Position numbers and translations under genes: made by a program | The notes under the pieces: model-generated | Databases searched by the model: none | What the model was told of the DNA's origin: nothing | What the model saw: only the letters and a program-made list of their open reading frames with translations | Shown: positions 23,019-46,406 of the stretch, piece by piece | Layout: each line of letters opens with the position of its first letter | How positions within the stretch are numbered: the stretch's first letter is position 1 | Assembly (NCBI GenBank): GCA_963725665.1 | Contig: CAVRZA010000011.1 | Location: forward strand, 384,001 to 448,000 | Direction: 5' to 3' | DNA length: 64,000 nt | Source of the DNA: an uncultured Actinomycetes bacterium | GTDB taxonomy: Bacteria > Actinomycetota > Thermoleophilia > UBA2241

Positions 23019-23232
23019 CTCAGCCGCCGCCGAACCCGACGCGCACCTCATCGCGTTCGTCAACGAGGACCGGCACCACCTGCTGGCCGCCCGTGAGCTC
23101 GGCGACCCTCTCGCGTGCCCCCGGCGTCGTGTAGACGTCGATCTCGTCATAGTCGACCCCCCGGCTCCGCAGATCCTCCTTCGCCGCGGCGCAGTAGGGG
23201 CAGCCCGGCTTCGTGTAGATCGTGACCGTCAT
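23011..23232 (-). CDS. Uxx-star family glutaredoxin-like selenoprotein
   Basis: YTKPGCPYC...VGFGGG-TGA-GGC-ATC-TGA, i.e. U-G-I-stop; ATGA-coupled to cadA. Confidence 0.8.
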
Positions 23233-26030
23233 GAGGTTCCTTCGTCCGATCGCTGTTCGCCGCCCGCCGGCGCGGAGCCGCGTTGCAGGCGCATGCCGTT
23301 GCCGATCACGAGCAGCGATGTGCCCATGTCGGCGAAGACGGCCATCCAGAGGGTGACCAGCCCCAGCGGCGCCAGGACGAGGAACACCGCCTTGATGGCG
23401 ATGGACAGGGCGATGTTCTCACGCACCACGTGGACGGTGCGCCGCGAGAGGGCGAGCATCGCCGGCAGCGCCTCGAGGTCGTCTCCCATGAGGGCGATGT
23501 CGGCGGTGTCGAGCGCCGCGTCGGTGCCGGCTGCGCCCATGGCGATGCCTACGGTCGCGGCGGCGAGCGCGGGGGCGTCGTTGACCCCGTCGCCGACCAT
23601 GCCCACGGCGCCGTAGCGCGCCGCGAGCTCGTACACGGCGTCGACCTTGTCCTCGGGCAGCAGTCCGGCGCGCACCTCGTCGACGCCGGCCTGCTGCCCG
23701 ATCGCCCGCGCCGTCGCTTCGTTGTCGCCGGTGAGCATGACGATGCGCTGCACGCCCTGCTCGCGCAGGGCGCGCAGCGCATCGCGCGCCTCGGGGCGGA
23801 CGGCGTCGGCCACGGCGATGAGACCCAGCGCCCGCCGCGGCGTGCCCACGATCACGGCGGTCTTGCCTTCGCCTCGCAGACGTTCCATCTCCGCCCTCAG
23901 GCGAGGCTCGGCCACGGTCGCAGCGTCGGCGCCCGACCAGAGCTCAGGCACCCCCACGAGGTAGGTCTCGCCGCCGATCTCGGCGCGCACACCCTTGCCG
24001 ACGACGGCACGGAAGGCCTGAGCCCGCGGCAGTTGGGCGTGGACGCGGTGCTCGACGTCGTTGTCGAGGTGAGTGTGTTCAACGTGCTCGTCCGCGCAAC
24101 CGCACCCTTGCCCCGAGCAGTCGCAGGGGTCGTCGTGGACCGCGTGGTCGTGGACCGCGTGGCCATCCGCCCGCTGGCCGTCGCGCCCCTCGGCGGCTGC
24201 GACGATGGCGCGCCCAAGGGCGTGCTCGCTCGGGCGCTCGCACGCCGCGGCGAGCTCGAGCAGGGCGTCGGACGCGACGCTGTCGAGCGACACGACGTCG
24301 GTCAACTGGGGCGTGCCCGTCGTCAGGGTGCCGGTCTTGTCGAAGGCGATGACCCGCAGCTTGTGCGCCTGTTCCAGGTAGACGCCGCCCTTCACGAGGA
24401 CGCCGCGCCGGGTGGCGGCGGCCAGGGCGGAGACGACGCTCACGGGTGTCGAGATCACGAGGGCGCAGGGACACGAGATGATGAGCAGGGCGAGACCGCG
24501 GTAGAGCCAGGTGGAGAACGGAGCTCCAAGCAGCGGCGGCACGATGACGACGGCCGCCGCGGCGGCGATCACCAGCGGCGTGTACTTGGCGGCGAAACGG
24601 TCGACGGTGCTCTCGAGGGGCGCACGCGTCGCCTGCGCCTCCTCGACGAGGTGGATGATCTTGGCGATGGTGTTGGTCTCGGCGGTGCTCGTCGCCCGGA
24701 TGTGCAGCGAGCCCCCGGCGACGATGGAGCCGGCGAAGACCTGGTCGCCGGGCTGCCGCGCCAGCGGCAGCGACTCGCCGGTGATGGCCGCCTGGTCGAC
24801 GGCTGCCGAACCCTCGACCACGACGCCGTCGACGGCGACACGCTCGCCGGGGCGAAGCACGAGCACGTCTCCTACCGCGATCTCGGCGGCGGCGGCACGG
24901 CGCTCCTGCCCGTCACGCAGCACCGTGCACTCCTCGGGCGCCAGCTCGACGAGGGAGCGGATGGCGCTCCGCGTGCGCTCCATGGAGGCCGCCTGCAGTG
25001 CGTTGCCGAGGGCGAACAGGAACACGACGAGACCTGCCTCGGACCACTGGCCGATGGCCGCCGCGCCGAGGGCTGCGATGGTCATGAGGACGTTCATGTC
25101 GACCTGGCGTGCGCGCAGCGAGTAGAAGGCTGCTCGTGCCATGTAGGCGCCGCCGGCCACCATGGCGGCGGCGAAGAGGAACGGGACGAGTGCCGGCGCC
25201 AGCGCCTCGGCGGCGAACCCGGCGATCACGAGCACGCCGGAGGCGAGCGTCGTGATCGCGCGGCGGTCGGAGAGCCAGAAGCGGCGCTGGCGCCGGCGCT
25301 CGTCCGAGAGGCGGTAGCCGAGCTCGCCTGCGGCCGCACGCAGCGACGCCTCGGACACGCGCGCCGGCGAGTAGGTGACGGTGAGGCGCGCGAGGGCGAA
25401 GTCGACGCGCGCCGCGGACACCCCGCCGAGGCGGCCCAGACGGCTCTCGAGCTTGGCGGCGCAGTCGGCGCAGTCCATCCCTGCGACGGCGAAGGTCTGC
25501 GTGCGTTCCTTGGCCCGCTCGGCCTCGAGCGTACCGTAGCCGAGCTGGTCGATGCGCCGCAGCACGGCGTCGTAGTCCACGGCGTCAGGATCGAAGGTGA
25601 CGTTGAGCGTCGAGGCGCCGAAGCTCGCCTCGGCGTCGATCACGCCCGGCATCGTGCGCAAGGCGCCCTCGAGCTTGAGGGCACAGTCGGCGCAGTCGAG
25701 CCCCGTCACGTGTGCGAGCCGGCGCTCGACATCGGCCGCAGACTGCGGCAGGGCGAGGCTGAAGTCGAGCTCGCCGTGCTCGTGCACGCCGTCGGGGCAG
25801 TGCACCGGGCAGTGCGCGCGCGAGGCGACACGCCGAGCCTGGCGCACGAGGTCGTCGTAGGAGACCACCGCCGGGTCGAAGCCGACCTGCAGGCGACCGC
25901 GCGTGAGGTCGGACGAGACGCCCTGGATGCCCGGCACGCCGCCGAGCGCCTGCGAAAGCTCGAGGACGCACGCCTCGCACTCGGCCCCGCGTGGGAGCAG
26001 CACCGGCAGGTCGAGCTGCTTCGTCGTCAT
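23229..26030 (-). CDS. cadA: P1B heavy-metal (Zn/Cd/Pb) exporting ATPase with three N-terminal metal-binding domains
   Basis: CEAC, 2x DCADC, TGES, SCPC, DKTGT, GDGVNDAP, WMAVFADMG. Confidence 0.93.
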   Translation of the reverse strand: MTTKQLDLPVLLPRGAECEACVLELSQALGGVPGIQGVSSDLTRGRLQVGFDPAVVSYDDLVRQARRVASRAHCPVHCPDGVHEHGELDFSLALPQSAADVERRLAHVTGLDCADCALKLEGALRTMPGVIDAEASFGASTLNVTFDPDAVDYDAVLRRIDQLGYGTLEAERAKERTQTFAVAGMDCADCAAKLESRLGRLGGVSAARVDFALARLTVTYSPARVSEASLRAAAGELGYRLSDERRRQRRFWLSDRRAITTLASGVLVIAGFAAEALAPALVPFLFAAAMVAGGAYMARAAFYSLRARQVDMNVLMTIAALGAAAIGQWSEAGLVVFLFALGNALQAASMERTRSAIRSLVELAPEECTVLRDGQERRAAAAEIAVGDVLVLRPGERVAVDGVVVEGSAAVDQAAITGESLPLARQPGDQVFAGSIVAGGSLHIRATSTAETNTIAKIIHLVEEAQATRAPLESTVDRFAAKYTPLVIAAAAAVVIVPPLLGAPFSTWLYRGLALLIISCPCALVISTPVSVVSALAAATRRGVLVKGGVYLEQAHKLRVIAFDKTGTLTTGTPQLTDVVSLDSVASDALLELAAACERPSEHALGRAIVAAAEGRDGQRADGHAVHDHAVHDDPCDCSGQGCGCADEHVEHTHLDNDVEHRVHAQLPRAQAFRAVVGKGVRAEIGGETYLVGVPELWSGADAATVAEPRLRAEMERLRGEGKTAVIVGTPRRALGLIAVADAVRPEARDALRALREQGVQRIVMLTGDNEATARAIGQQAGVDEVRAGLLPEDKVDAVYELAARYGAVGMVGDGVNDAPALAAATVGIAMGAAGTDAALDTADIALMGDDLEALPAMLALSRRTVHVVRENIALSIAIKAVFLVLAPLGLVTLWMAVFADMGTSLLVIGNGMRLQRGSAPAGGEQRSDEGTS

Positions 26031-28526: not shown

Positions 28527-28570
28527 GCTGGGCGGGGCGGCGGGCCGTACGGCCCGCCGCCCCGCCCAGC
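28527..28570. terminator. Terminator-like 44-bp palindrome after usp
   Basis: 21-bp perfect arms followed by TTCTT. Confidence 0.75.
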
Positions 28571-28642
28571 TTCTTCCTGGTTTGCGAGCACGCGACAGTG
28601 TCTTTGTGTACAATGCCGCGTCAATCGCCATGGGGGTGAGGA

Positions 28643-30028
28643 TTGCGCCGATTCTGGTCGCGCTGGTACGGCAAACTCGTCGTGATCGGCCTTGTGGCCG
28701 TCATCGTGCTGGTGGTCGCTGCGTTCGCCGCCGCACAGTACACCGAGGACGATGGCTTCTGCGGCACCGCCTGTCACGAGATGAACCCGTATTTCGCCAC
28801 GTGGCAGCAGTCGCAGCACAGCGACGTCAACTGTGTGCGCTGTCACATCCAGCCTGGGACGATCCAGCTCATCAAGGCGAAGACGTCGGCCCTACGCGAG
28901 GTCTGGGTCCACTTCACCGGCCAGGTCAAGGCGCCCATCGCCGTGACGAGGCACATTCCGAACTCGACCTGCCTCTCCTGTCACGCGCCCGGCAAGGGCG
29001 TCGACCCGATCAAGCTCCCCGGCGTCTCCACGGTCGCCTTCTCCCATCGCGCGCACGCCGCGGTGAGCAACTGCATCGACTGCCATTCGCAGGTCGTGCA
29101 CCGCTCGGTGCCGGGCAAGCCCTTCGTCGACCCGAAGACCATGGCGTTCTGCCTGCGCTGCCACGACGACAAGCAGGCGAAAGGGACCTGCGAGCTCTGC
29201 CACACCGCCCCGCACGCCGCCCGTGGGCGCTGCATCGACTGCCATCAGCTCGGCTCGTGGAAGTCGACGTTCAAGCATCCGGTAGCGCTCGGCAAGCCGC
29301 ACCGCGCCTTGATCTGCGAGAAGTGCCACACGCAGGCGCAAGGCACGACGATGGGCTTCCCGGCGGGCTGCGTGAGCTGTCACGGCAACCATCATCACGA
29401 CGCCAAGGCGACGCTCTGCGCCAAGTGCCACGTGCCGAGCTACTTCGTGCCCTCGACGTTCAAGCATCCCAAGACCGGCTGTCAGCGCTGCCACACCTCG
29501 CCTCACCCCGACCGCGGGGCGTGCCTGCGCTGTCACACGCAGCACTCGTGGGCGTCACACTTCCAGCACCCGTTCCCGCTGGCGGGACCCCACTCCTCCT
29601 TCGCCTGCGAGCGCTGCCACACCAACGGCATCAACGCGCCGGGCCGCGACTGCACCGGCTGCCACAAGCCGCCGCATCCCGTCTACGGTTCGTGTCTCAC
29701 CTGCCACAGCATGTCGTCGTGGGCCTCTCACTTCGCGCACCCGATAGCCCTCGGGGCCCACTCATCGTTCGCCTGCTCGCGCTGCCACGTGAACGGCATC
29801 AACTCGGCGCCCATCGGCTGTTCGAGCTGCCACGGCTCGAAGCACGGCGGCCTGACCAATTGCGTCCAGTGTCACACCATGTCGTACTTCGTCCCCTCGA
29901 CGTTCCACCACCCGGCGGCCGGAGAGCACAGCGCCGGATCGTTCGCCTGCACGGCGTGTCACCCCGGCGGCAACTTCGGGCGCGTCTACTGCTCCTGCCA
30001 CGGAGGCAAGCCGCCTTCAGGGGACTGA
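28643..30028 (+). CDS. Membrane-anchored multiheme cytochrome c, NapC/NirT-like head, ~20 heme motifs
   Basis: N-terminal TM helix; 18 CxxCH plus CGTACH and terminal CSCH. Confidence 0.92.
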   Translation: MRRFWSRWYGKLVVIGLVAVIVLVVAAFAAAQYTEDDGFCGTACHEMNPYFATWQQSQHSDVNCVRCHIQPGTIQLIKAKTSALREVWVHFTGQVKAPIAVTRHIPNSTCLSCHAPGKGVDPIKLPGVSTVAFSHRAHAAVSNCIDCHSQVVHRSVPGKPFVDPKTMAFCLRCHDDKQAKGTCELCHTAPHAARGRCIDCHQLGSWKSTFKHPVALGKPHRALICEKCHTQAQGTTMGFPAGCVSCHGNHHHDAKATLCAKCHVPSYFVPSTFKHPKTGCQRCHTSPHPDRGACLRCHTQHSWASHFQHPFPLAGPHSSFACERCHTNGINAPGRDCTGCHKPPHPVYGSCLTCHSMSSWASHFAHPIALGAHSSFACSRCHVNGINSAPIGCSSCHGSKHGGLTNCVQCHTMSYFVPSTFHHPAAGEHSAGSFACTACHPGGNFGRVYCSCHGGKPPSGD

Positions 30029-30195
30029 CCGTGTTCATGAGGCCGTCGTTGCGCGGGTGACGGCGCTCGTGCCGCGGTTCCCAAGCGCCCCGGGCCTGGG
30101 CTAGACTCCATCGGCGGTCGCCACAAACGCAAAGCGGGTGACGCAGGACGCCCCTGCGTCGGGGCCGCTCGCGGCAGCCGCCGAAAGGAGCTCAG

Positions 30196-31155
30196 GTGGC
30201 AAGGAGGGGCAGGGGGTTCTGGGGGACCAGGCGGAGCAAGCTGCTCATGGGTGCCCTGATCGTCGTCGCGGTCCTCATCGGCAGTTCGTTCGTCGCCGCC
30301 AGGTTCACCGAGAGCAACAGGTTCTGCGGCACAGACTGTCACGAGATGTGGCCCTACCGCGACACGTGGCGAGCCTCCACACATCACACCGTCGACTGCG
30401 TCCAGTGCCACATCCCGCCCGGGCCGGTCAACTTCGCGCTCACCAAGCTCTACGCGTCGCGCGAGCTCTGGGTGCATTTCACGGGGCAGGTCAAGGCGCC
30501 CATCCTGGTCACGCGCCACATCCCGAACTCGGCGTGCGAGCGGTCGGGCTGTCACACGAGCAGTCAGATCGCGCCGCCGGTGAAGTTGGGCACAGCCGCG
30601 CCCGTGACGTTCAAGCACGGCAGCGCCGGGCACGCCAAGAGCAAGTGCGTCGACTGCCACGCCGCGGTCGTCCACGCGGGCGCGCCCGGCGTCGTGAACG
30701 TGCCGCCCAACTCGATGGGCTCCTGCTTCAAGTGTCACACCGACGGGCCGAAGAACTGCGCCTACTGCCACCAGCCGCCGCACGCCGACCGGGGTCCCTG
30801 CCAGAACTGCCACAGTCTCGGCGCGTGGACCGGCGGCAAGAACTTCGCGCATCCGCAGCCTCTCGTCGGCACCCACGCCCAGATCGCCTGCGAGCAGTGC
30901 CACACCAAGGGCGTCTCGGTGCCTCCCGATGGCTGCATCAACTGTCACGGCGACCAGCACAACGGCCTCAAGAACTGCATCCAGTGCCACGTGCTCAAGG
31001 GGTGGATCCCGAGCACGTTCAACCACCCACAGGAGGGGCCGCACGTGCCGGCGGGAGAGGAGCCGCTGCAGTGCGGCGCCTGTCACCAGCAGGGCTTCGG
31101 CCAGCCGGCCGGCTGCCCCTGCCACGGCGGCAACCCGCCGACGGGGGGCGGATGA
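30196..31155 (+). CDS. Paralogous membrane-anchored multiheme cytochrome c, ~12 heme motifs
   Basis: TM helix; 9 CxxCH plus CGTDCH, CERSGCH and CPCH; shares WVHFTGQVKAPIxVTRHIPNS with the upstream paralog; AAAGGAG RBS. Confidence 0.92.
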   Translation: MARRGRGFWGTRRSKLLMGALIVVAVLIGSSFVAARFTESNRFCGTDCHEMWPYRDTWRASTHHTVDCVQCHIPPGPVNFALTKLYASRELWVHFTGQVKAPILVTRHIPNSACERSGCHTSSQIAPPVKLGTAAPVTFKHGSAGHAKSKCVDCHAAVVHAGAPGVVNVPPNSMGSCFKCHTDGPKNCAYCHQPPHADRGPCQNCHSLGAWTGGKNFAHPQPLVGTHAQIACEQCHTKGVSVPPDGCINCHGDQHNGLKNCIQCHVLKGWIPSTFNHPQEGPHVPAGEEPLQCGACHQQGFGQPAGCPCHGGNPPTGGG

Positions 31156-31187: not shown

Positions 31188-31227
31188 GGGGGTGGGGGCG
31201 CCGCGTTGGCGCGGCGCCCCCACCCCC
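31188..31227. terminator. Hairpin after the second cytochrome
   Basis: Perfect 18-bp inverted repeat, 4-nt loop. Confidence 0.7.
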
Positions 31228-31245
31228 ACGGATATACTCGTGCTC

Positions 31246-31932
31246 GTGCACCGGCTCGCCCTCTTCGACATCGACTGCACGCTGATCGACGCCCATGGCG
31301 CCGGCGGGCGTGCCATCTTGGGCGCCATCGCGGAGACCTACGGAGTGAGCGGGTCCCTCGAGGGTTACACGTTCCACGGACGGACCGATCCCGGCATCGT
31401 CGCCGATCTGGCCACGCGCTGGGGTGCGTCGGCAGACGCGGTGCGGGCGGGCCTCGATGCGTGCCTGGCGGCTTACATCCGTCTGCTCGAGGACGAGATG
31501 ACAGCGGGTACGATCGAGGTCCTGGCGGGTGTGCGGGAGCTCGTCACGGCGCTCGTTGAGGATGAGCGCGTGCTCCTGGGGCTGCTCACCGGCAACATAC
31601 AGGCCGGCGCGGCGCTCAAGCTGGCGCCGACCGGCCTCGCGGGCCTCTTCGCGGTCGGGGCCTACGGATCCGATTCCCCCGACCGGCCCGAGCTCCCGGC
31701 CTTCGCCGTCGAACGGGCCCGAGCGCTCACGGGACACCGCTATCGGGGCAAGGAGATCGTCATCATCGGCGACACGCCGTCGGACATCCTGTGCGGCGTC
31801 GACCATGAGGTCAAAGCCATCGGCGTGGCCACCGGGCGGCACAGCGTCGCCGAGCTCGAGGCTCACCATCCGGACTTCGTCTTCCGCGACCTCAGCGACT
31901 GGCGCGCTGTCTACGCGGCGATCCTCACCTGA
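31246..31932 (+). CDS. HAD-family hydrolase (phosphoglycolate phosphatase-like)
   Basis: LFDIDCTL, LLTGN, IIGDTPSDI; TATACT 7 nt before GTG suggests a leaderless start. Confidence 0.85.
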   Translation: MHRLALFDIDCTLIDAHGAGGRAILGAIAETYGVSGSLEGYTFHGRTDPGIVADLATRWGASADAVRAGLDACLAAYIRLLEDEMTAGTIEVLAGVRELVTALVEDERVLLGLLTGNIQAGAALKLAPTGLAGLFAVGAYGSDSPDRPELPAFAVERARALTGHRYRGKEIVIIGDTPSDILCGVDHEVKAIGVATGRHSVAELEAHHPDFVFRDLSDWRAVYAAILT

Positions 31933-32081
31933 GCGGCAGGCGGCCGCCGAGCTGATCCTCGCCGGAGGTGGGCGCCCGCCCACGGTAGCCGAGGCGGAAG
32001 CGGGGTGAGCGTCGCCGCCGGCCTCGGTGGGAACCCTGCGACTACAGGTATACCATTGGACTCCATCCCCAGGGAGGCGAC

Positions 32082-34355
32082 GTGGAAAGCCCGGATGGGT
32101 CTCATACGCGGGTGGGTGAGCAGCAGCCGGCCGCCGGCGCCGAAACGGTGGTCGCGCCGTCCCCCGACGCCGACGCCCAGCCGGAGATGGAGACAGTCCC
32201 GAGCGCGGAGGCCGCCAGCGCGGTCGGCGACGAAGCGGGCGAACGAGCCGGCGCCGACCTGCGCGACCCCGCGCTCTTCCTCAACCGGGAGCTGAGTCTC
32301 CTCAAGTTCCAGGCGCGCGTCCTCGACGAAGCGCGCGACCGGCGTAACCCGCTTCTCGAGCGTCTCAAGTTCCTCGGCATAGTGGGCTCCAACCTGGGCG
32401 AGTTCTTCATGGTCCGCATCGCCGGTCTCAAGCAGCAGGTGCGCGCCGGCGTGACCGAGCCCTCCGGCGATGGCCGGACGCCGGCCGAGACCTTGGCGGA
32501 GGCCCGTGAGGGAGCATTCGAGCTCATGAGGCAGGCTCGGGAGGTGTACGCCGATTTGCTGCCTCAGCTCAGCGACGCCGGCATCCACATCGTCGACTAC
32601 GATCGGCTCGACGACGCAGCGCGGCAGGCGGCCGACGAGTACTTCAAAACCGTCGTCTTCCCCGTGCTCACGCCGCTGGCCTTTGATCCCGGCCGTCCCT
32701 TCCCGCATATCTCGAACCTCAGCCTGAGCCTCGCCATCCTGCTGCGCAGTCCCGAGGGTGAGGAGCTGTTCGCTCGGGTCAAGATCCCCAAGGCGCTGCC
32801 CCGGCTCGTCCCTCTCTGCCCGCCGGGAGCGGGGCAGGCGTGCGACTTCTCAGCGCCCGAGCTGCACCTGCTCTGGCTCGAGCAGCTCGTGGCCGCTCAC
32901 CTCGACACGCTCTTCCCGGGCATGGAGATCATCACCGCCCATCCCTTCAGGATCACGCGCGACGCCGAGATGCAGATCCAGGAACTGGAGGCCGACGACC
33001 TGCTGGAGACTATCGAGGAGGGCGTGCGCCGGCGGCGGTTCGGCTCGGTCGTGCGTGTCAGCGTCGACACGACGATGCCCGAGCGGCTGAAGGGGATCCT
33101 CGTGGAGAACCTCCGCTTCGATCCCCGCGACATGATCACCCTCGAGCCGCCGCTGGGGATGAGCGGCTTCTGGGACATCTACGGCCAGATCGATCGGCCG
33201 GACCTCAAGGACCCGGCGTTCGTGCCGGCGCTCCCGGCCGCGCTGCGGGAGGAGGAAGAGCGCGACATCTTCTCCCTGATCCGGGAGCGCGACATGCTGG
33301 TCCACCATCCCTACGACTCGTTCCAGCCGGTCGTCAACTTCTTCCAGCAGGCCGCGCGTGACCCGGACGTCCTGGCCATCAAGACGACCCTGTATCGCGT
33401 CGGGCGCCGTTCGCCCGTGGTGCAGGCGCTCCTTGAGGCCGCCGCCAACGGCAAGGAGGTGGCCGTCCTGCTCGAGCTCAAGGCGCGCTTCGACGAGGAG
33501 AGTAACATCGAGTGGGCAAGGGCCCTCGAGGCCGAAGGCGTGCATGTGGTCTACGGCCTGTTGGGGCTCAAGACGCACTCGAAGATCGCCCTCGTGGTGC
33601 GCCGAGAGGGCGCGGGGATCCGGCGCTACCTCCACCTCGCCACGGGCAACTACAACGCCGTCACGGCGCAGCAGTACACTGACCTGGGGATGTTCACCTG
33701 CGACCTCGAGATGGGGGCCGACGGCTCCCAGGTCTTCAACTACCTGACCGGCTACGGATCGAGTGGCCAGTACCGCAAGTTCCTGGTCGCGCCGGTGAAC
33801 CTGCGCCGCGACTTCGAGACGCTGGTGCGGCGCGAGATCGAGCACCAGAAGGCGGGTCGCGGGGGACACCTGATCTTCAAGATGAACGCCCTCGTCGACC
33901 GGCCGATGATCCGCCTGCTCTACGAGGCGTCGCGGGCCGGTGTGCAGGTCGATCTGCTCGTGCGCGGCATCTGCTGCCTGCGACCGGGCGTACCGGGCGT
34001 GAGCGACAACATCCGCGAGATCAGCATCTTGGGCCGCTTCCTCGAGCACAGCCGCATCTACTACTTCCGCAACGGCGGCGACCCGACGATCCTGCTGGGC
34101 AGCGCCGACCTCATGCCGCGTAACCTCAACCGGCGTGTAGAGATCCTTTTCCCCGTTCAGGACGCGGGCATCAAGGCTCGTCTGCGCGAGGAGATCCTGG
34201 CCACGTACCTAGCGGACACGGGCAAAGCGCGCCTCATGTTCCCCGACGGGACCTACCAGCGGGTGATGCCCGCCGAGGGCGGCGAGCCCCTCGAGAGCCA
34301 GACGGCGCTCATCGCCGTGGCGGCGGCGCCACCCGAGGCGCCCACAGTCAGCTGA
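32082..34355 (+). CDS. ppk1: Polyphosphate kinase 1
   Basis: NRELSLLKFQARVL, PFPHISN, HHPYDSF, LKARFDEESN, KTHSK, GRFLEHSR, GSADLMPRNL. Confidence 0.96.
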   Translation: MESPDGSHTRVGEQQPAAGAETVVAPSPDADAQPEMETVPSAEAASAVGDEAGERAGADLRDPALFLNRELSLLKFQARVLDEARDRRNPLLERLKFLGIVGSNLGEFFMVRIAGLKQQVRAGVTEPSGDGRTPAETLAEAREGAFELMRQAREVYADLLPQLSDAGIHIVDYDRLDDAARQAADEYFKTVVFPVLTPLAFDPGRPFPHISNLSLSLAILLRSPEGEELFARVKIPKALPRLVPLCPPGAGQACDFSAPELHLLWLEQLVAAHLDTLFPGMEIITAHPFRITRDAEMQIQELEADDLLETIEEGVRRRRFGSVVRVSVDTTMPERLKGILVENLRFDPRDMITLEPPLGMSGFWDIYGQIDRPDLKDPAFVPALPAALREEEERDIFSLIRERDMLVHHPYDSFQPVVNFFQQAARDPDVLAIKTTLYRVGRRSPVVQALLEAAANGKEVAVLLELKARFDEESNIEWARALEAEGVHVVYGLLGLKTHSKIALVVRREGAGIRRYLHLATGNYNAVTAQQYTDLGMFTCDLEMGADGSQVFNYLTGYGSSGQYRKFLVAPVNLRRDFETLVRREIEHQKAGRGGHLIFKMNALVDRPMIRLLYEASRAGVQVDLLVRGICCLRPGVPGVSDNIREISILGRFLEHSRIYYFRNGGDPTILLGSADLMPRNLNRRVEILFPVQDAGIKARLREEILATYLADTGKARLMFPDGTYQRVMPAEGGEPLESQTALIAVAAAPPEAPTVS

Positions 34356-34370
34356 CCACGAGGGGGAGGA

Positions 34371-34877
34371 GTGCGCCTACTCTTTCTACGCCACGGCCAG
34401 GCCGAGCCGCGCGAGACGTGGACCGGGGCCGATGAGGGCCGTCCCTTGACGGCCGAGGGACGGTTGGCGATGGCGCGCGAGGCCACCACGATCGCGCGCC
34501 TCGGGCTTGCTCCTGACGCGATCCTCACGAGTCCCTTGATCAGGGCTCACGAGACGGCACAGATCGTCGCTGAGGGCCTCGGCATGGCGGATCGCCTGCG
34601 CCGCGATGTGCGCCTGGCGCCGGGCTTCGGCCCGGCGCAGATGGAAGCGATCCTCGACGAGCACCGGGAGGCGAGAACACTCATGCTGGTCGGTCATGAG
34701 CCCGACTTCAGCCTGATCATCGGTAGCCTCGTGGGAGGGGCGGCGGTGGTGTGCAAGAAGGGTGGCCTCGCGCGTGTCGACGTCGATCCCGAGTCTGGCG
34801 CGGCCGAGCTGGTCTGGCTCCTGCCGCCGAAGGTGCTGACCGTCTCGACGAGCAAGGGGGCGAGTGTTGGAGATTGA
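34371..34877 (+). CDS. sixA: Phosphohistidine phosphatase
   Basis: LRHGQA, RPLT, SPLIRA.ETA, VGHEP. Confidence 0.9.
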   Translation: MRLLFLRHGQAEPRETWTGADEGRPLTAEGRLAMAREATTIARLGLAPDAILTSPLIRAHETAQIVAEGLGMADRLRRDVRLAPGFGPAQMEAILDEHREARTLMLVGHEPDFSLIIGSLVGGAAVVCKKGGLARVDVDPESGAAELVWLLPPKVLTVSTSKGASVGD

Positions 34878-37071
34878 GGCCAAGTTCCGCGTGCCCGATG
34901 ACGAGACGTTCGAGCGGCTCGAAGAGACGGTCGAGCTGGGCAGCTTCGCGGTGAGCCCCGGGCGCCTCGTCGACCTCGACGACCGTTACCTCGACACGGA
35001 TGACTACCGTGTGCTCTCGGCGGGCTACTTCTGCCGCCGCCGCGAGTCGCAGGACGGCATCGTGATGACCTTCAAAGGCTTGAGCGACGGTGACGGCGCG
35101 GTGCACCGGCGTGAGGAGGTCAGCGTCGAGCTCGAAGTCGACGGGCCGCCTCCGAGCTGGCCCGACGGGCCGGCACGCGAGCTGGCTCTGCGGCTGGCGG
35201 GGGACCGGCCGCTCGAGACGCTCTTCGGGCTGCGTCAGCAGCGTCTCGAGCGGGCGGTCGCCCGCGGTGGCCGCACGGTGGCCGAGCTAGCCCTCGACAG
35301 AGTGACGATCGACACGCAAAGAGGGAGCCGGAGCTTCCTCGAGTCCGAGATCGAGCTGCGCCCTGGGGGTACGGAGCGCGACCTCGACGAGCTCATCGCG
35401 GTCGTGCGGGCGCGCTGGGGTCTCGAACCTGTCGCCCAGTCGAAGTTCGCCCGCGGCCTGGCGCTGGCAACGGGCGTGCCTTTGGATCGCACGGAGGATT
35501 GGCAGCGCGAGCTGCGGCGCCTGCGTGTGCAGCGGTGGGTGCGGCGGACGCGTTACGAGACGGGCGCGAGTACCGGGTACGTGACCGGTCCCGCGGCATC
35601 TGAGGGCAGTGGGGGACCGGCCAGCCGCCCGGCACCGCAGGAGCCCGAGTCGCACCTGGTCGAGTCCGCCGAGCGCGGCGAGCAACGCGCCGTGCCGCAG
35701 GTGTCCGTGTTGGCTGCGGTGGATCGGAGAGGCGCCGGTGGGGCCGAGAGCGAAACGTCTGAGGCCGAGGAACCGGAGGCGGCAGTTGCAGAGCCCGAGG
35801 AACCGCAGCCGGAAGCACCCGAGCCGGAAACGCCCGAGCCGACGACACCAGGGGCCGAGGAACCGGAGGCGGAGGTCGTAGAGTCCGAGGAACCGGAGGC
35901 GGAAGTCGCAGAGCCCGAGGAACCGGAGGCAGCGGAACCGGAGGCGCGTGAGCCCGAAGAGGCCGTAACGGAGGCGGAGGCGGAGGAACCGGAAGTCGCT
36001 GAAGCCGAAGCCGCCGCGGCTGGAGAGCCTGAGGAGGCCGAACACAAAGATGCCGCCCTCGAGGGCGACGCCGCGGAGGCGAAGAAGAAGGAGCGCGCGC
36101 GGCCGGGCATCGTGTCCGACGACACGATGGACGAGGCCGCGCGCAAGACGCTCCTCTTCCACTACGAGCGCATGCTGAAGCACGAGCCGGGCACCCGCGA
36201 GGGGGATGACGCCGAAGAGCTGCACGACATGCGTGTCGCCACGCGTCGCATGAGGGCGGCGCTGCGCGTCTTCGACGGCTATGTCGATCGCGCCACGATC
36301 AAGCCCTACCTCAAGGCGCTGCGGCGCACCGGCCGCACCCTGGGGACGGTGCGTGACCTCGACGTCTTCTACGAGAAGACGCAGCGCTACCTGCAGAGCT
36401 TGCCCGAGGGACACCAAGACGATCTCGAACCCCTGCTCGTCGCCTGGCGCGCGCGGCGCGACGAGGCGCGCGCCGTGATGATCGACTACCTCGACTCGGC
36501 GGCGTTCGCGCGCTTCACGCGCCGCTTCGGCGAGTTCCTCGACAGGCCCGGCGCCGGCGCCGTGGCGCCGTTCACCGCCGACGGCGGGCCGCTGCCGCGG
36601 CACGTTCGCGACGCGCTGCCGGTCGTTCTCTTCGAACGCCTGGCAGCCGTGCGGGCTTTCGACGAGTGGGTCGGTGGGCAGGACGTGCCGCTGACGCGCT
36701 ATCATCGCCTGCGCATCGCCTCGAAGGGGCTGCGCTACACGCTGGAGTTCTTCGAAGAGGTCCTCGGGGCCGGCGCCAATCCGCTGATCGAGCACGTGAA
36801 GACGCTGCAGGATCACTTGGGCGATCTACAGGATGCCGTGGTCGGCTGCGGCGTCGCCGGCGCCTTCCTCACCTGGGGCACCTGGCAGGCGCCGGGGGCC
36901 AAGTGCCGGGGGCCCGCTCACCCCGTGCTCAACGCTCCCGGGGTAGCGACCTACCTGGCGCATCGCCAGCAGGAGATCGCCACCCTGATCGAGACCTTCC
37001 CGCCCGTGTGGGAGAGGGTGGGTGGGCCGGAGTTCGCCCGCGGCGTCGCGGGACTGGTGGCCGGCCTGTAG
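34864..37071 (+). CDS. CYTH + CHAD domain protein with a long acidic linker
   Basis: EIEAKF, DRYLDT, ESEIEL (CYTH); LHDMRVATRRMRAAL, RDLDV, HRLRIASKGLRY, LQDHLGDLQD (CHAD). Confidence 0.9.
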   Translation: MLEIEAKFRVPDDETFERLEETVELGSFAVSPGRLVDLDDRYLDTDDYRVLSAGYFCRRRESQDGIVMTFKGLSDGDGAVHRREEVSVELEVDGPPPSWPDGPARELALRLAGDRPLETLFGLRQQRLERAVARGGRTVAELALDRVTIDTQRGSRSFLESEIELRPGGTERDLDELIAVVRARWGLEPVAQSKFARGLALATGVPLDRTEDWQRELRRLRVQRWVRRTRYETGASTGYVTGPAASEGSGGPASRPAPQEPESHLVESAERGEQRAVPQVSVLAAVDRRGAGGAESETSEAEEPEAAVAEPEEPQPEAPEPETPEPTTPGAEEPEAEVVESEEPEAEVAEPEEPEAAEPEAREPEEAVTEAEAEEPEVAEAEAAAAGEPEEAEHKDAALEGDAAEAKKKERARPGIVSDDTMDEAARKTLLFHYERMLKHEPGTREGDDAEELHDMRVATRRMRAALRVFDGYVDRATIKPYLKALRRTGRTLGTVRDLDVFYEKTQRYLQSLPEGHQDDLEPLLVAWRARRDEARAVMIDYLDSAAFARFTRRFGEFLDRPGAGAVAPFTADGGPLPRHVRDALPVVLFERLAAVRAFDEWVGGQDVPLTRYHRLRIASKGLRYTLEFFEEVLGAGANPLIEHVKTLQDHLGDLQDAVVGCGVAGAFLTWGTWQAPGAKCRGPAHPVLNAPGVATYLAHRQQEIATLIETFPPVWERVGGPEFARGVAGLVAGL
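35761..36042 (+). repeat. Imperfect coding tandem repeats (GAGGAACCGGAGGC core; EEPEA, ~30-bp period)
   Basis: Repeated xEEPEAEVxE units in the CYTH-CHAD linker. Confidence 0.8.
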
Positions 37072-37095
37072 GCCAGCCGCACCCCCGCTGGCCCG

Positions 37096-38751
37096 TCAGC
37101 GCGCCGGACCCGACGCCGGCGGCGTGTCGGTCCGGCGCGTCTCGACGGCCAGGCTGCGCCCGAGCGCCTTCTCCACTGCCTCCTGGCGCGTTTGGATCCC
37201 CCACAGCTCCAGGTGACAATCGCCCGCGGTCGTGAGCTCGAGCACGGCCGTCGCGGCATCGATGCGCCCGAAGCGCGCGTTGCGCACGCACCCAGTGTGA
37301 CTGCGGTCGAGGCGTTCCGCCAGGCGCAGCAGGAGCGCGAGCATGCGCGTGGCGCGACGGTCCCCCGCGTCGAGCTCGGCCAGCTCCGGGTTGCGCGAGC
37401 CGGGCAGCGCCTTGCGGTGGAAGCGCGTGACGGCCGCGAGCAACTCGATCTCCTCCTGGTCGAAGCCCAGCAGATCGGCGTTGCGCACGAGGTAGGCGGT
37501 GTGCAGGTGGTGGTCGCGGTACGAGAGGAAGGTGCCGACGTCGTGCAGCAAGGCGGCGTAGCCGAGGAGCTCGCGCTCGCGCTCTCCCAGGTCGTGCAGG
37601 CCGGTCTCGTGGCCGCTGTCGAAGAGCGCGAGCGCGAGCTCCCTCACGTGCCGGGCGTGGGGCTCGTCGAACTTGCAGCGGCGGCCGAGCTGCACCACGC
37701 TGCGCTCGCGCACGTCGAGACCGCGCACGAGTCCGCGGTGTCGGCTGCGGCGCAGGTAGTCCATGAGCATGCCCTCGCGCACCCCGCAGTCGGCGAGGGC
37801 TACGATCTCGGGCAGGTCGAGCTCGGTCATGAGCGTCTCGAGGACGGCGGCGCCGGCGACGATGATGTCGGCGCGCTCGGGGTTGATGCCCGGCACCGAG
37901 CGACGCTCCTCGGCCGTCATGGCGCGCAGCGTCTTGGCCACCTTCCTGAGATCGCCGCGCGCAAGCGGCTGGTCGTGGGCAGGCGTCTCGTCGTGCAGCG
38001 TCTTGGCGGCGATGGCGGCCAGGTTGCGCATCGATCCCGACGTGCCGAAGGCGGCGTCGATGCGGAAGCGTTTGAGCTCGTGCACGACGTGCGCCGAGGC
38101 GAGACGCACGTGGCGCTGAACGGCCTCGTACTGGCGAGCGCTGACGCGATCCGCCCCTTGTCCCGGCACCTCCTCCTCGGTGACGCGGAGCGCGCCGAGG
38201 CGCAGCGACTCGAGATAGAAGTGCCGCCGGCGGTCGCCGATGGCGACCTCGGTGCTGCCGCCGCCGATGTCGACGACGAGCACCGTGCGGTCTCCGACGT
38301 GCACCCTGCCGAGCAGGCCGAGGTAGATCAGCCGCGCCTCCTCGCGTCCCGAGATCACGCGCACCTCGAGGCCGGCTTCGTCGCGCAGGCGATCGAGAAG
38401 CTCCGCCCGGTTCGCCGCCTCCCTGGTCGCCGACGTGGCCACGGCGACGATCTCAGAGGCGCCGTGTGAGCGCGCGAGGTCGGCGAAGCTACGGCAGACG
38501 AGCGTCGCCCTTTCGATAGCCTCGGGGACGAGACGCCCGCCACCGAACTCCCGCTCTCCGAGACGTACCGACTCTCGCTGCACGGAGATCACCGAGTAGG
38601 AATGGTTGGGACGGATCTCGACGAGCATCAGCCGCACGGAGTTGGTGCCGATGTCGACGAAGCCCACGACCTGGTCGCGTTCGGCGAGCGGCGCTGCCAC
38701 GGCTGGGGTGGTTCGTGACGAAGGCACGATGGAGATGATACCTCTAGCCAT
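37096..38751 (-). CDS. ppx: Exopolyphosphatase Ppx/GppA with HD-like C-terminal domain
   Basis: DIGTNSVRL, ATSATREA, DIGGGSTE, LLHDVG. Confidence 0.93.
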   Translation of the reverse strand: MARGIISIVPSSRTTPAVAAPLAERDQVVGFVDIGTNSVRLMLVEIRPNHSYSVISVQRESVRLGEREFGGGRLVPEAIERATLVCRSFADLARSHGASEIVAVATSATREAANRAELLDRLRDEAGLEVRVISGREEARLIYLGLLGRVHVGDRTVLVVDIGGGSTEVAIGDRRRHFYLESLRLGALRVTEEEVPGQGADRVSARQYEAVQRHVRLASAHVVHELKRFRIDAAFGTSGSMRNLAAIAAKTLHDETPAHDQPLARGDLRKVAKTLRAMTAEERRSVPGINPERADIIVAGAAVLETLMTELDLPEIVALADCGVREGMLMDYLRRSRHRGLVRGLDVRERSVVQLGRRCKFDEPHARHVRELALALFDSGHETGLHDLGERERELLGYAALLHDVGTFLSYRDHHLHTAYLVRNADLLGFDQEEIELLAAVTRFHRKALPGSRNPELAELDAGDRRATRMLALLLRLAERLDRSHTGCVRNARFGRIDAATAVLELTTAGDCHLELWGIQTRQEAVEKALGRSLAVETRRTDTPPASGPAR

Positions 38752-38818
38752 GGTCCGTGAGCCGCCTATCGAGTAATCTGAGTGGCTGTGCGCAGCGCGC
38801 GGCTGGGGAGGAGGACTG

Positions 38819-39664
38819 TTGCCACGAGACGAGCGTCAACGTGACGAGAAGACGGACAAGGACGGGACGAGCGGCGAGCCCAAGGCCAAGCTCGACCGTG
38901 CGACCTACGAGAAGGCGCTCGGCAAGCTGCACTTCGAGCTCGTGAAGCTGCAGGAGTGGATCAAGCACGAGGGCCTCAAGGTCGTGGTGCTCTTCGAGGG
39001 ACGCGACGCCGCCGGCAAGGGCGGCACCATCAAACGCATCACCGAGCCCCTCAATCCACGCGTCGTGCGCGTGGTCGCGCTGCCGGCGCCGACCGAGCGG
39101 CAGAAGACGCAGTGGTACTTCCAGCGCTACGTGGAGGAGCTGCCGGCCGCCGGCGAGATGGTCCTCCTCGACCGCAGCTGGTACAACCGCGCCGGCGTCG
39201 AGCGTGTGCTCGGCTTCACCAGCGAGGAGGAGGTACAGGAGTTCTTCCGCACCTGCCCTGAGTTCGAGCGCATGCTGATCCGTTCGGGGACCATCCTCAT
39301 CAAGTACTGGTTCAGCGTCAGCGACGAGGAGCAGGAGCGCCGCTTCCAGGAGCGCATCAACGACCCTCTCAAGCGCTGGAAGTTCAGCGAGATGGACGTC
39401 GAGTCGCGTGACCACTGGGAGGAGTACTCGCGCGCCAAGGACGAGATGTTCGCCTTCACCGACACGAAGTGGTCGCCGTGGTACGTCGTCGAGGGTGACG
39501 ACAAGCGGCGTGCGCGCCTGAACTGCATCAGTCACCTGCTCAGCATGATCCCCTACGAAGACGTGCTGCCGAAGCCGTTCAAGCTGGCGGTGCGCAAGCC
39601 GCCGAGCAAAGGCTACGTCCGTCCGCCGATGAGCGAGCAGACGTTTGTGCCGCAAGTCTTCTAG
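38819..39664 (+). CDS. ppk2: Polyphosphate kinase 2
   Basis: FEGRDAAGKGGTIKRI, DRSWYNRAGVERV, ARLNCI. Confidence 0.95.
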   Translation: MPRDERQRDEKTDKDGTSGEPKAKLDRATYEKALGKLHFELVKLQEWIKHEGLKVVVLFEGRDAAGKGGTIKRITEPLNPRVVRVVALPAPTERQKTQWYFQRYVEELPAAGEMVLLDRSWYNRAGVERVLGFTSEEEVQEFFRTCPEFERMLIRSGTILIKYWFSVSDEEQERRFQERINDPLKRWKFSEMDVESRDHWEEYSRAKDEMFAFTDTKWSPWYVVEGDDKRRARLNCISHLLSMIPYEDVLPKPFKLAVRKPPSKGYVRPPMSEQTFVPQVF

Positions 39665-39784
39665 CTGAGTGCGTCTGCGGCCCCGTGACGGCCTTGTTCT
39701 CTGCCGCCAGCGCTAACGTTTTAGCCCGGGTCCCCTAACGTGGTAAGATACCGCTCCCCTGAGGGAGTGGGAGGAACGTAGTCT

Positions 39785-40489
39785 GTGAACCTCGCCTTGC
39801 GCGAACACCCTGCGGCCGGCCTCGTGATGAACATGGCCGCGAACCTCGAGCGAGCTGCGTCGCTGCTTCCCGAAATGATGACCGGTGACGACGGGGCCTG
39901 CGGCTACGAGATCCTGGAGCGTGAGCGTGTCGGTGACGAGCTCATTCGGGATCTTCTCACATACCTCGAATCCGGCTCGCTCGCCACCGACGCGCTCGCG
40001 CGCGACGACGTGCGAGAGCTGGCCGGTGTGCTCGAGGATACGCTCGACGCCGTGGCGGCGGCGGCCGAAGGTGTGCGCCTCTACCGCCTTGACGATCCCG
40101 TGACCGAGATGCGCGAGCTGGTGCAGGGGGTGGCGCACGGAACAACTCTGCTGAGGCGGGCCGTTGCGTCCACGGAATCGTGTGGCGGTATACGCCGCTG
40201 CTGGCTCGAGCTCGCCCGGCTCGAGGACGATGGCGAGACGCTGGCTGCGACGCTGCGGGTCATGCTGCGCGACGAAGGAACTGCCGCTGCTGGGCGCTGG
40301 CGCGACATCGTCGACCTGACCGAAGAGGCTCTTCACGGCTGCCAGCACGCGGGTGCCATCCTGGTCGCTGCCGATGCTGCAGCCCGCCTAGCTCGCCTCA
40401 GTCCTCAGAGTCAGCACCGGACTCCCTGCTCGTGGTCGCGCTCGTGCCACGGGCGGGCGACGGTTGGCTCCCCGCGGCGCACACATTAA
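39785..40489 (+). CDS. DUF47/PhoU-like helical phosphate-transport regulator (divergent)
   Basis: LERERVGDEL, REDxxxL-like RDDVRELAGVLEDTLD, LEDDGE; located inside the Pho island. Confidence 0.6.
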   Translation: MNLALREHPAAGLVMNMAANLERAASLLPEMMTGDDGACGYEILERERVGDELIRDLLTYLESGSLATDALARDDVRELAGVLEDTLDAVAAAAEGVRLYRLDDPVTEMRELVQGVAHGTTLLRRAVASTESCGGIRRCWLELARLEDDGETLAATLRVMLRDEGTAAAGRWRDIVDLTEEALHGCQHAGAILVAADAAARLARLSPQSQHRTPCSWSRSCHGRATVGSPRRTH

Positions 40490-40517
40490 TGAGACACTAA
40501 CAATCGATGGCTATAGT
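40486..40517 (+). promoter_or_regulatory. PHO-box-like promoter of phoBR
   Basis: TTAAT(40486) and CTAAC(40497) at 11-bp spacing, then N10 and TATAGT. Confidence 0.65.
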
Positions 40518-40558
40518 GCCGCCCGCGGTCCTCCTCGACTTCTGACGCGGAGAGTGTG

Positions 40559-41257
<699 letters not shown>

Positions 41258-41261
<4 letters not shown>

Positions 41262-43060: not shown

Positions 43061-43231
43061 TCCTCACCGTTCCTTCTTCGGACAATCTCTCGCGACCATC
43101 CACCACGTCGGTATCCACATCGGTGCCGAGTTCATGATCCAGCCGCGCATACCGGAGACGCGTCGTGCGCGTGGCCCGCTCAACCCCGACTACTACGGCG
43201 CGGTCCGGCTTTGGATGTATCTCGCTTCTGG

Positions 43232-43274
43232 CTAACAGGAACCTAACGGTCCGCTAACACGGTATGGGTAGTTT
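43232..43274 (+). promoter_or_regulatory. PHO-box-like promoter of pstS
   Basis: CTAAC at 43232, 43243 and 43254 (11-bp period), then N10 and TAGTTT. Confidence 0.8.
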
Positions 43275-43320
43275 CCTTCCCGGGTTGGAGCGGACCGAAC
43301 GGACCAAGGAAAGGATCCAC

Positions 43321-44442: not shown

Positions 44443-44526
44443 TCGATCGGGCTGATTGGGCCGCCTTCGCAAGGGGCAGAAAGCGGCTCACATGGGGTGA
44501 AACGGCTCACATGGTAGGGAGATGAC

Positions 44527-46400: not shown

Positions 46401-46406
46401 GAAGGC

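Follow-up and report, generated by a model that had tools for sequence, protein, structure and literature searches.

Can a single polypeptide carry electrons from the quinone pool of a bacterium to the outside of its wall, or does it hand them on to other cytochromes beyond the membrane? The question is raised by two adjacent multiheme cytochrome genes, here called gene A and gene B, in an uncultured Actinomycetes bacterium of the class Thermoleophilia (assembly GCA_963725665.1). They lie in a stretch of 64,000 nucleotides of contig CAVRZA010000011.1 (positions 384,001 to 448,000, forward strand), which we call the window and by whose own numbering all window positions are given. To our knowledge, electron passage through the walls of bacteria that lack an outer membrane has been described in very few cases, chiefly Thermincola and a flavin-based route, and the soil and wetland Actinomycetota have hardly been studied for electron export. 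From their sequences, we think it fairly probable that A and B link membrane menaquinol to carriers or acceptors beyond the membrane, by way of an NrfH-type head and a modular chain of bis-His hemes that hands over to other cytochromes. The two genes and their parts, all on the plus strand, are as follows.

28643..30028, plus strand: gene A, 461 aa, TTG start; intact open reading frame with 20 heme-type motifs
28670..29107, plus strand: NapC/NirT/NrfH-type four-heme head, A residues 10-155 (PF03264, E 4.7e-16; Foldseek match to 2vr0_F)
28676..28738, plus strand: predicted transmembrane helix, A residues 12-32 (hydropathy and flanking charges; AlphaFold2 (AF2) helix 8-35)
28760..28783, plus strand: heme-1 site CGTACHEM, A residues 40-47 (CX3CH spacing, NrfH-type Met)
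29108..30025, plus strand: predicted 16-heme extension, A residues 156-461 (motif spacing, PF14522, profile match to 3ov0_A)
29990..30001, plus strand: C-terminal CXCH site CSCH, A residues 450-453 (invariant; relatives carry CXXCH at the same position)
30196..31155, plus strand: gene B, 319 aa, GTG start; intact open reading frame with 12 heme-type motifs
30241..30678, plus strand: NapC/NirT/NrfH-type head including the transmembrane helix, B residues 16-161 (PF03264, E 4.7e-15; 2j7a_C)
30325..30348, plus strand: heme-1 site CGTDCHEM, B residues 44-51 (CX3CH and Met)
31114..31125, plus strand: C-terminal CXCH site CPCH, B residues 307-310 (invariant)

Two membrane-anchored cytochromes with NapC/NirT/NrfH-type heads

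Third-position G+C is 0.90 in A and 0.92 in B, typical of genes in a genome of 68% G+C, so by coding signal both are real genes. The start of gene A is supported by an 85%-identical homologue (P0002) that begins at the same position, and an AGGAG at 30186-30190 lies 5 nt upstream of the start of gene B. The two proteins are 48% identical. A preliminary description of the locus had counted 20 and 12 heme motifs; these figures stand as totals but not as counts of canonical sites, being reached only when atypical sites are included. A has 18 CXXCH, one CX3CH (C40-GTA-C44-H, then E-M) and one CXCH (C450-S-C452-H), while B has nine CXXCH, one CX3CH (CGTDCH-E-M), one CX4CH (CERSGCH) and one CXCH (CPCH). 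The first site, given there as C..CHEM, is in fact C...CHEM, with three residues between the cysteines (CX3CH-E-M). The density of heme motifs in A and B is far above chance, since in a six-frame scan of the 3.73-Mb genome (97.5% complete) just 16 stop-to-stop frames of 80 aa or longer contain at least three CXXCH, A and B among them.

Each protein has a single hydrophobic segment, for which the best 19-residue Kyte-Doolittle window begins at residue 12 in A and residue 16 in B. AF2 places helices at residues 8-35 of A and 12-38 of B, the latter with a predicted local distance difference test score (pLDDT) near 90, in agreement with the one N-terminal transmembrane helix previously described for both. 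In A as in B, four Lys or Arg residues and no Asp or Glu precede the segment, and acidic residues follow it. Given this positive N-terminus and the acidic residues after the sole hydrophobic segment, the proteins should be oriented N-in and C-out, with the heme domain outside the membrane, on the side where the Ccm machinery attaches heme.

The Pfam NapC/NirT profile PF03264 scores 59.5 bits for A and 56.2 bits for B against a cut-off of 24.1 and covers positions 9-171 and 11-170, respectively, of its 174, which bears out the NapC/NirT/NrfH head that had been proposed in front of a dense heme chain in both proteins. The menaquinol dehydrogenase NrfH is the sole sequence match of B in the PDB (phmmer, 2j7a_C, E 3.6e-8), and NrfH chains are the only fold matches that Foldseek returns for the two AF2 models (A against 2vr0_F: E 2e-4, template modelling score 0.60 by target length; B: E 3.6e-3, 0.54-0.57 by target length). 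In the HMMER alignment of B, the first motif aligns with C43-M49 of NrfH with a one-residue insertion, the invariant heme-1 Met with Met49 and the invariant Glu with Asp89. C40, C44, H45, E46 and M47 of A are invariant in the family alignments, and the Lys...Glu pair noticed earlier behind the first site (K80/E86 in A, K84/E90 in B) is invariant in all three of them (A1, A2 and A3). Because their scores fall far below the NCBIfam cut-offs for NrfH, NapC and TorC (for the NapC equivalog TIGR02161, 29.6 bits in A and 27.8 in B against 310.6; for the TorC equivalog TIGR02162, 29.5 and 22.8 against 478.2), A and B are, as judged by these profiles, relatives of the NapC/NirT/NrfH family and orthologues of no named member.

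An extension built from three-heme modules

Behind the head, the spacing of the motifs recurs at ~23/10/9 residues, and each module has three conserved non-motif His, two in the long gap and one in the last. By primary structure, this combination of spacing and His placement is the pattern of a three-heme c7-type domain. In B, the head (hemes 1-4) is followed by two three-heme modules and, at the end, by a two-heme unit; A has this layout plus one two-heme unit and two further three-heme modules, its extension being made up of three-heme modules at hemes 5-7, 8-10, 13-15 and 16-18 and two-heme units at hemes 11-12 and 19-20. The c7 model PF14522 matches A in four stretches (51.7 bits against a cut-off of 24.8) and scores B slightly under that cut-off (23.6 bits); the score for TIGR04257 is 27.1, under its cut-off of 40. 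When the A1 family profile is compared with the PDB, the best match is GSU1996 (3ov0_A, E 1.3e-18, four stretches), and six-heme GSU1996 fragments and c7 cytochromes are matched as well.

The extra His between motifs, one of the original observations on this locus, is present in both proteins. In B, 11 non-motif His are invariant or nearly invariant, enough for bis-His ligation of all 11 hemes besides the Met-ligated heme 1, and the family alignments contain no conserved Met in the repeated three-heme modules. With ~1 nm per heme, a yardstick taken from GSU1996, the chain would span roughly 8 nm beyond the head in B and 16 nm in A, if it is as linear as GSU1996.

A family with two old length classes

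An exhaustive profile search gives 335 representative clusters at E <=1e-30; proteins of 713 and 737 aa with a NapC-type head are among its matches. A word-indexed protein search gives 959 proteins at E <=0.001, with few named family proteins, labelled NapC/NirT family cytochrome c, and in its 120 best hits heme-motif totals cluster at 12, 17, 20, 23 and 26. A FastTree phylogeny of 110 rows (the 120 best hits minus 11 without a head motif in the first 90 residues, plus B) contains 51 rows with 12 motifs, 27 with 17, 10 with 20, 11 with 23 and 1 with 26; from 17 to 26, the totals go up by three. Two clades, both at 100% local support, make up the tree: the long clade (52 rows) includes A and has totals of 17, 20, 23 and 26, and the short clade (58 rows) includes B, mostly with 12 motifs and with one subclade at 14-21. 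The 17-heme label changes at least 8 times on the tree within the long clade. Since totals change many times there, modules seem to be readily gained and lost. A recent tandem duplication was considered as the origin of A and B and rejected, given the full support for each clade and the 48% identity; the tree makes them old paralogues.

Within the class Thermoleophilia, the family occurs in 41 of 301 sampled genomes (E <=1e-30). The positive genomes are confined to 2 of 12 families, at 20 of 55 in each, and at the same threshold the cytochrome family is found in 0 of 190 genomes of the other ten. Sampling of 61 genomes from the window's own family gave the cytochrome in 19, CcmF in 46 and MntH in 40; CcmF is present in 18 of the 19 cytochrome-bearing genomes. 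About 9 of these 19 have the short and the long form together, in tandem or at separate sites.

The long-form relatives P0003, P0013, P0015, P0018 and P0043 have a 40-80-aa insert rich in Ala, Pro, Ser and Gly within the head, between heme 3 and heme 4, that A and B do not have. Secreted giants of 1,175-2,321 aa from metagenomes (P0121, P0124, P0125 and P0128) repeat the same extension module 15-30 times, and by its sequence the three-heme module is a widespread building block.

Two conserved atypical heme-type sites

We took a census of the first and last sites in 203 family sequences, made up of 83 gene calls from loci and 120 database hits. The head site reads CX3CHxM in 167 of them and CX2CHxM in 10. 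By strict pattern, the terminal site is CXCH in 161 sequences (about 9 more have CSCH with a longer tail). In 16, a canonical CXXCH stands at this position, as in ...SCLKCH..., ...SCTPCH... and ...TCIKCH...; one extra match to the terminal CXXCH pattern, in the truncated protein L010, was left out of the count. A CX3CHxM first site together with a C[SPT]CHGG C-terminal tail is nearly universal among the 120 best hits.

Because relatives have a canonical CXXCH at the same position, the CXCH can be read as a former normal heme site, and the comparison suggests that it is a working descendant of one. A heme at this site is weakly favoured by the count of 11 non-motif His in B. Distant relatives in Coriobacteriia and Eubacteriales show both terminal states, and the switch in spacing accordingly appears to have happened more than once. 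In the literature we searched, with incomplete coverage, we did not find CXCH described as a motif for the attachment of heme c. If CXCH does bind heme, the Ccm system of these bacteria would handle a spacing shorter than CXXCH; together, the conserved CXCH and CX3CH sites give direct predictions on the chemistry of heme attachment.

The Rieske box II motif also reads CPCHG. A Rieske-like reading of the C-terminal CPCHGG was rejected, as neither protein contains a box I (CxHxGC), a C.H..C or even a C.H. Elsewhere in the genome, a 239-aa 9-heme cytochrome (G000 contig C2:235480-236271; L082:1478-2197, minus strand) ends in ...CYGCH...CIHCHAGGKGGGD, an A/B-like tail with a canonical CXXCH.

Other cytochromes, heme maturation and quinone in the genome

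Besides A and B, four genes of this genome have a PF03264 head, and all four belong to a single cluster on contig C2 (G000 contig C2:34952-49395, L078). The cluster also encodes two 7-heme proteins, with a cytochrome b561-like gene after each of them, as well as an 8-heme protein, a 519-aa protein with 21 CXXCH and an NrfD-like protein; UbiD- and UbiA-type genes adjoin it. In a duplicated segment within the cluster, one NapC-headed copy (C2:39359-40328) is split between two frames. A gene of the MqnA/D family close to the cluster suggests that menaquinone is synthesised through futalosine. The genes for CcmA, CcmB, CcmC and CcmF adjoin hemA. Of the Ccm or Res maturation genes and menaquinone genes that had been named as things to look for, Ccm and a menaquinone gene are present, and a search of the genome found no ResB. 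Nor was any Omp85 found in this 97.5% complete genome.

An 871-aa secreted nine-heme protein (G000 contig C1:225739-228369; L079:1237-3852, minus strand) matches 6i5b_A (E 1.7e-18), and 6I5B is named, in the available part of the source, together with OcwA, the surface terminal reductase of Thermincola (PMC6703420). At its C-terminus this protein carries ~250 additional aa that match nothing in Pfam. Two more cytochromes have TIG or Ig-like C-terminal regions, and there are 8- and 9-heme proteins with partial Cytochrom_C552 or MtrC-like matches. At the level of the class, a preprint, in the part available, reports proteins of the extracellular electron transfer type in 8 of 19 metagenome-assembled genomes of Thermoleophilia.

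Gene neighbourhood and the mntH association

Upstream of A and B lie genes for a P-type metal ATPase, an ArsR regulator and mntH (NRAMP), the last tightly joined to usp, which encodes a universal stress protein; downstream are a HAD hydrolase and then a block of phosphate and polyphosphate genes. Two short elements stand between usp and gene A.

28527..28570, plus strand: 20-bp, G+C-rich hairpin followed by TTCTTCC, just 3' of the usp stop codon (from a consensus scan only)
28609..28614, plus strand: TACAAT, candidate -10 element, 29 nt upstream of the start of gene A (found by eye; a promoter scan made no call)

The hairpin looks like a terminator, which would split mntH-usp from the cytochrome genes. 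The window contains no NrfA, molybdopterin enzyme or porin, and in this respect the preliminary description, which had noted the lack of a catalytic partner or porin nearby, was right.

For comparison we used 77 related loci from public metagenome-assembled genomes, 71 of which have a family gene called (the window region included). Genes in these loci were called by a crude script based on third-position G+C, and some were missed or mis-called, for example in the loci L026 and L034. Within four genes of the cytochrome, MntH is found in 23 of the 71 loci, Usp in 22 and HAD in 22, and the 12-heme form frequently stands in the order mntH-usp-cytochrome-HAD. The gap between MntH and usp is 2-4 nt in 17 of 18 cases, and that between usp and the cytochrome 15-163 nt. 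Among 30 mntH loci of the same family, 12 have the cytochrome after usp, 16 run from usp straight into HAD and 2 are cut by contig ends. In one of the 12 (L115, G026:C1:179132-179491), the cytochrome after mntH-usp is a 144-aa head-only frame that looks like a decaying copy. The mntH and metal-efflux context, which had been called compatible with electron export, is rejected as evidence for it: the mntH-usp-HAD backbone lacks the cytochrome in 16 of 28 usable loci, and the hairpin separates usp from gene A. The association with mntH is shared gene order and no coupling.

In other clades, the cytochrome stands beside CcmABCEF and purine genes, or beside a two-component system and selenocysteine genes. 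Across the 71 loci, no reductase is conserved beside either the short or the long form. Conserved downstream genes that had been guessed to be CcdA, ResB and ResC are, by Pfam, a response regulator, a histidine kinase and PstS/PstC. Rfam at gathering scores has no match in the window, so no riboswitch was found upstream of mntH or of the cytochromes. A search of sequencing runs found no RNA dataset with the locus; the 20 runs returned all have small shares, at most 0.14, as DNA contigs.

The remaining genes of note lie on both sides of the pair. The minus-strand gene at 23229-26030, which the ArsR gene adjoins, encodes a P-type ATPase of 933 aa; it has heavy-metal-associated domains, and its hydrolase domain contains an insert rich in His, Cys and Asp (...HAVHDHAVHDDPCDCSGQGCGC...). 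The phosphate block, at 31192-47276, contains the HAD hydrolase, PPK1 (32082-34355), a SixA-like histidine phosphatase, a CYTH-CHAD protein (34864-37071) whose long acidic insert is rich in Glu, Pro and Ala, Ppx/GppA (37096-38751, minus strand), PPK2 (38819-39664), a PhoP/PhoR-like pair (40665-43060), PstS (43264-44442), a permease resembling PstC and an ABC ATPase (46407-47276). At 51811-53016 is a gene for an NlpC/P60 peptidase with an S-layer-homology domain, which hints at a Gram-positive-type wall with secondary cell-wall polymers.

Proposed function and the readings weighed against it

Architecture, homology, orientation as deduced from the sequence, modular variation in length and the genomic inventory are established, and a mechanism can be outlined on that basis. 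A and B would each be held in the cytoplasmic membrane by a single N-terminal helix, and all of the heme domain would lie on the outer side of that membrane. The head (hemes 1-4) would exchange electrons with menaquinol at the Met-ligated heme 1, near the conserved Lys and Glu, as in NrfH and CymA. Electrons would then pass along the bis-His hemes of the c7-type modules, 8 more in B and 16 more in A, and in this organism they are probably received by other cytochromes of the wall or surface, for example the OcwA-like nine-heme protein. Here we infer the oxidation of quinol, the direction of electron flow, the geometry of the chain, the partners and the physiological acceptor. We consider a relay more likely than a self-sufficient conduit because of the four additional NapC-headed genes, the 21-heme cytochrome, the OcwA-like protein and the estimated lengths.

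Several observations weigh against such a link from menaquinol to outside carriers. The invariant Lys aligns one residue after Lys82 of NrfH in the HMMER alignment, and on the NrfH equivalog TIGR03153 A scores 55.7 and B 51 bits, below the cut-off of 134.2. Modelled without hemes, the proteins have a mean pLDDT of only 64.5 (B) and 56.8 (A), and because both AF2 models are of low confidence the extended geometry is taken solely from homology with GSU1996. No partner is linked by neighbourhood, and the long-form relatives have no conserved respiratory neighbour. Patchy occurrence, in 41 of 301 genomes, marks the family as an accessory trait. Finally, the available part of a preprint calls Thermoleophilia gram-negative by staining, for which reason the envelope type is to be read as inferred from genes only.

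The preliminary description took each protein alone to be a complete conduit from quinol to the surface, crossing the wall and reducing Fe or Mn oxides, humics or a partner cell. The window without a partner gene, the genome in which no Omp85 was found, the three-heme steps in length up to 26 motifs and the NapC-headed relatives of 713 and 737 aa all fit this idea. However, Gram-positive walls are usually 20 nm or more thick, and the estimated reach beyond the head falls short of this in both proteins; moreover, the genome encodes other secreted or anchored multiheme proteins, the OcwA-like one included, and the commonest form in the tree is the 12-heme one (51 of 110 rows). We regard such a conduit as unlikely. 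In the broadest form of the idea, the whole family would consist of self-sufficient quinol-to-exterior wires whose reach is set by three-heme modules, with short and long forms often kept in the same genome and a CXCH-bound terminal heme as the exit port; this, too, strikes us as doubtful. Sequence does not distinguish direction of flow, storage and service to a reductase from one another. The same architecture serves both directions, and homologues of CymA and CbcL occur in both Fe(III) reducers and Fe(II) oxidisers, as the available part of one source describes (PMC6295460), so outside donors such as Fe(II), reduced humics or a partner cell might instead feed menaquinone; with nothing in the sequence that sets direction, we give this reverse flow little credence.

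Storage is suggested by GSU1996, the closest solved relative of the extension, which is described, in the part of the source available, as working as a capacitor (PMC10138318), and chains like those of A and B might buffer electrons of the quinone pool when acceptors are scarce. But GSU1996 is a soluble protein of the periplasm, while the chains of A and B are tethered to a head with a quinol site, and storage and conduction are compatible; as the principal role we find buffering quite improbable. Much the same holds for a CymA-like hub that feeds catalytic reductases (of nitrogen, sulfur or organic acceptors) anchored in the membrane or wall and encoded elsewhere: as a rule, NapC/NirT proteins work with a catalytic partner, and such partners might be among the 8- and 9-heme proteins that partly match Cytochrom_C552 or are MtrC-like in part, yet no reductase is conserved beside either form in the 71 loci, and a 16-heme extension would be needless for an adjacent enzyme, which leaves the hub a distinctly slender prospect. 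We find it hardest to credit an assimilatory reductase that reduces Mn(III/IV) or Fe(III) outside the cell and supplies Mn2+ or Fe2+ to the adjacent MntH. It draws on mntH-usp directly upstream of the 12-heme form, on MntH at most four genes away in 23 of 71 loci and on MntH in 18 of the 19 cytochrome-bearing genomes of the window's family. Shared location in related genomes makes this co-occurrence expected, however, and mntH-usp leads on to HAD without the cytochrome in 16 of the 28 usable loci. The gaps (2-4 nt between MntH and usp against 15-163 nt between usp and cytochrome), the terminator-like hairpin after usp and the clades that place the cytochrome beside Ccm and purine genes or two-component systems speak against coupling as well. 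We thus keep to the link from menaquinol, through the head and the modular chain, to other cytochromes. The family is a compact, testable candidate, in which one gene joins an identifiable quinol head to a wire of naturally stepped length, and its members with 12, 17, 20, 23 and 26 motifs could form a natural series for electron transfer against chain length.

Comparison with known systems

NrfH of Desulfovibrio vulgaris (2j7a, 2vr0; PF03264) shares with A and B the N-terminal helix, the four-heme head and the Met two residues after the His of the heme-1 motif. At the putative quinol site, A and B have a Glu in the position of Asp89, and a Lys is close by. NrfH differs at heme 1, which has CXXCH in NrfH and CX3CH in A and B. 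Further, NrfH has four hemes and docks on NrfA, whereas B has 8 and A 16 more hemes and neither has a linked partner. The norm in the NapC/NirT/NrfH family is four hemes (five in TorC) and a separate partner; A and B depart from it with 20 and 12 motifs and no partner in the window.

For the extension, the nearest comparison is GSU1996 of Geobacter sulfurreducens (3ov0), a 12-heme 'nanowire' of four c7-type three-heme domains, which has repeated three-heme modules in common with A and B. It is described as a linear heme wire, the title of the paper that solved it calling it 'an extended 12 nm protein', and as far as the available text goes it has one His-Met heme per domain (PMC10138318). By contrast with this soluble protein and its His-Met hemes, A and B have modules in which three His are conserved but no Met, joined to a quinol head in the membrane.

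ImcH and CbcL of Geobacter sulfurreducens are, as proposed for A and B, quinol-linked inner-membrane multiheme cytochromes. ImcH has three transmembrane helices and seven hemes, in contrast to one hydrophobic segment and 20 and 12 motifs in A and B; CbcL has a b-type six-helix domain, in contrast to one helix and no b-type domain. Heme number varies among homologues of both, from 6 to 10 for ImcH and from 3 to 23 for CbcL, according to the part of the source available (PMC6295460). GAH_01256 of Geoglobus ahangari is given, in the accessible text, as a predicted ten-heme quinol dehydrogenase of the NapC/NirT family in an organism without an outer membrane (PMC8280799). By that description it resembles A and B in being of NapC/NirT type with more than four hemes, but it is archaeal and has ten.

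NapC/NirT-type heads with extra hemes (TorC, ImcH, GAH_01256) and a Gram-positive membrane multiheme quinol oxidase (ImdcA) are thus already known or predicted, and with ImdcA and GAH_01256 in print, as far as the available portions of these sources go, the idea put forward for A and B is less new than the preliminary description assumed. What is new, on sequence evidence, is a large and coherent actinobacterial family with 12 to 26 motifs, chain growth by three-heme modules, and a pair of conserved sites with atypical spacing (CX3CH-x-M for heme 1, CXCH near the C-terminal end). New as well are the two old length classes, often both kept in one genome. We found no description of this cytochrome family for Thermoleophilia or Actinomycetota in the literature, with limited coverage of subscription journals.

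The system closest in setting is that of Thermincola. ImdcA (Tfer_0070 / TherJR_1117) is, in the available text, a membrane-bound ten-heme cytochrome proposed to oxidise menaquinol and pass electrons to cytochromes including OcwA, in a relay made up of ImdcA, PdcA, CwcA and OcwA (PMC7911101). Its likeness to A and B is one of description and function only, that of a membrane-bound multiheme cytochrome in a Gram-positive bacterium, with an OcwA-like protein also encoded in the present genome. ImdcA differs in having ten hemes, where A and B have 20 and 12 motifs, and the part of PMC7911101 available to us mentions no relation to NapC/NirT. As an assemblage, the cytochrome inventory of this genome resembles the multi-protein relay of Thermincola.

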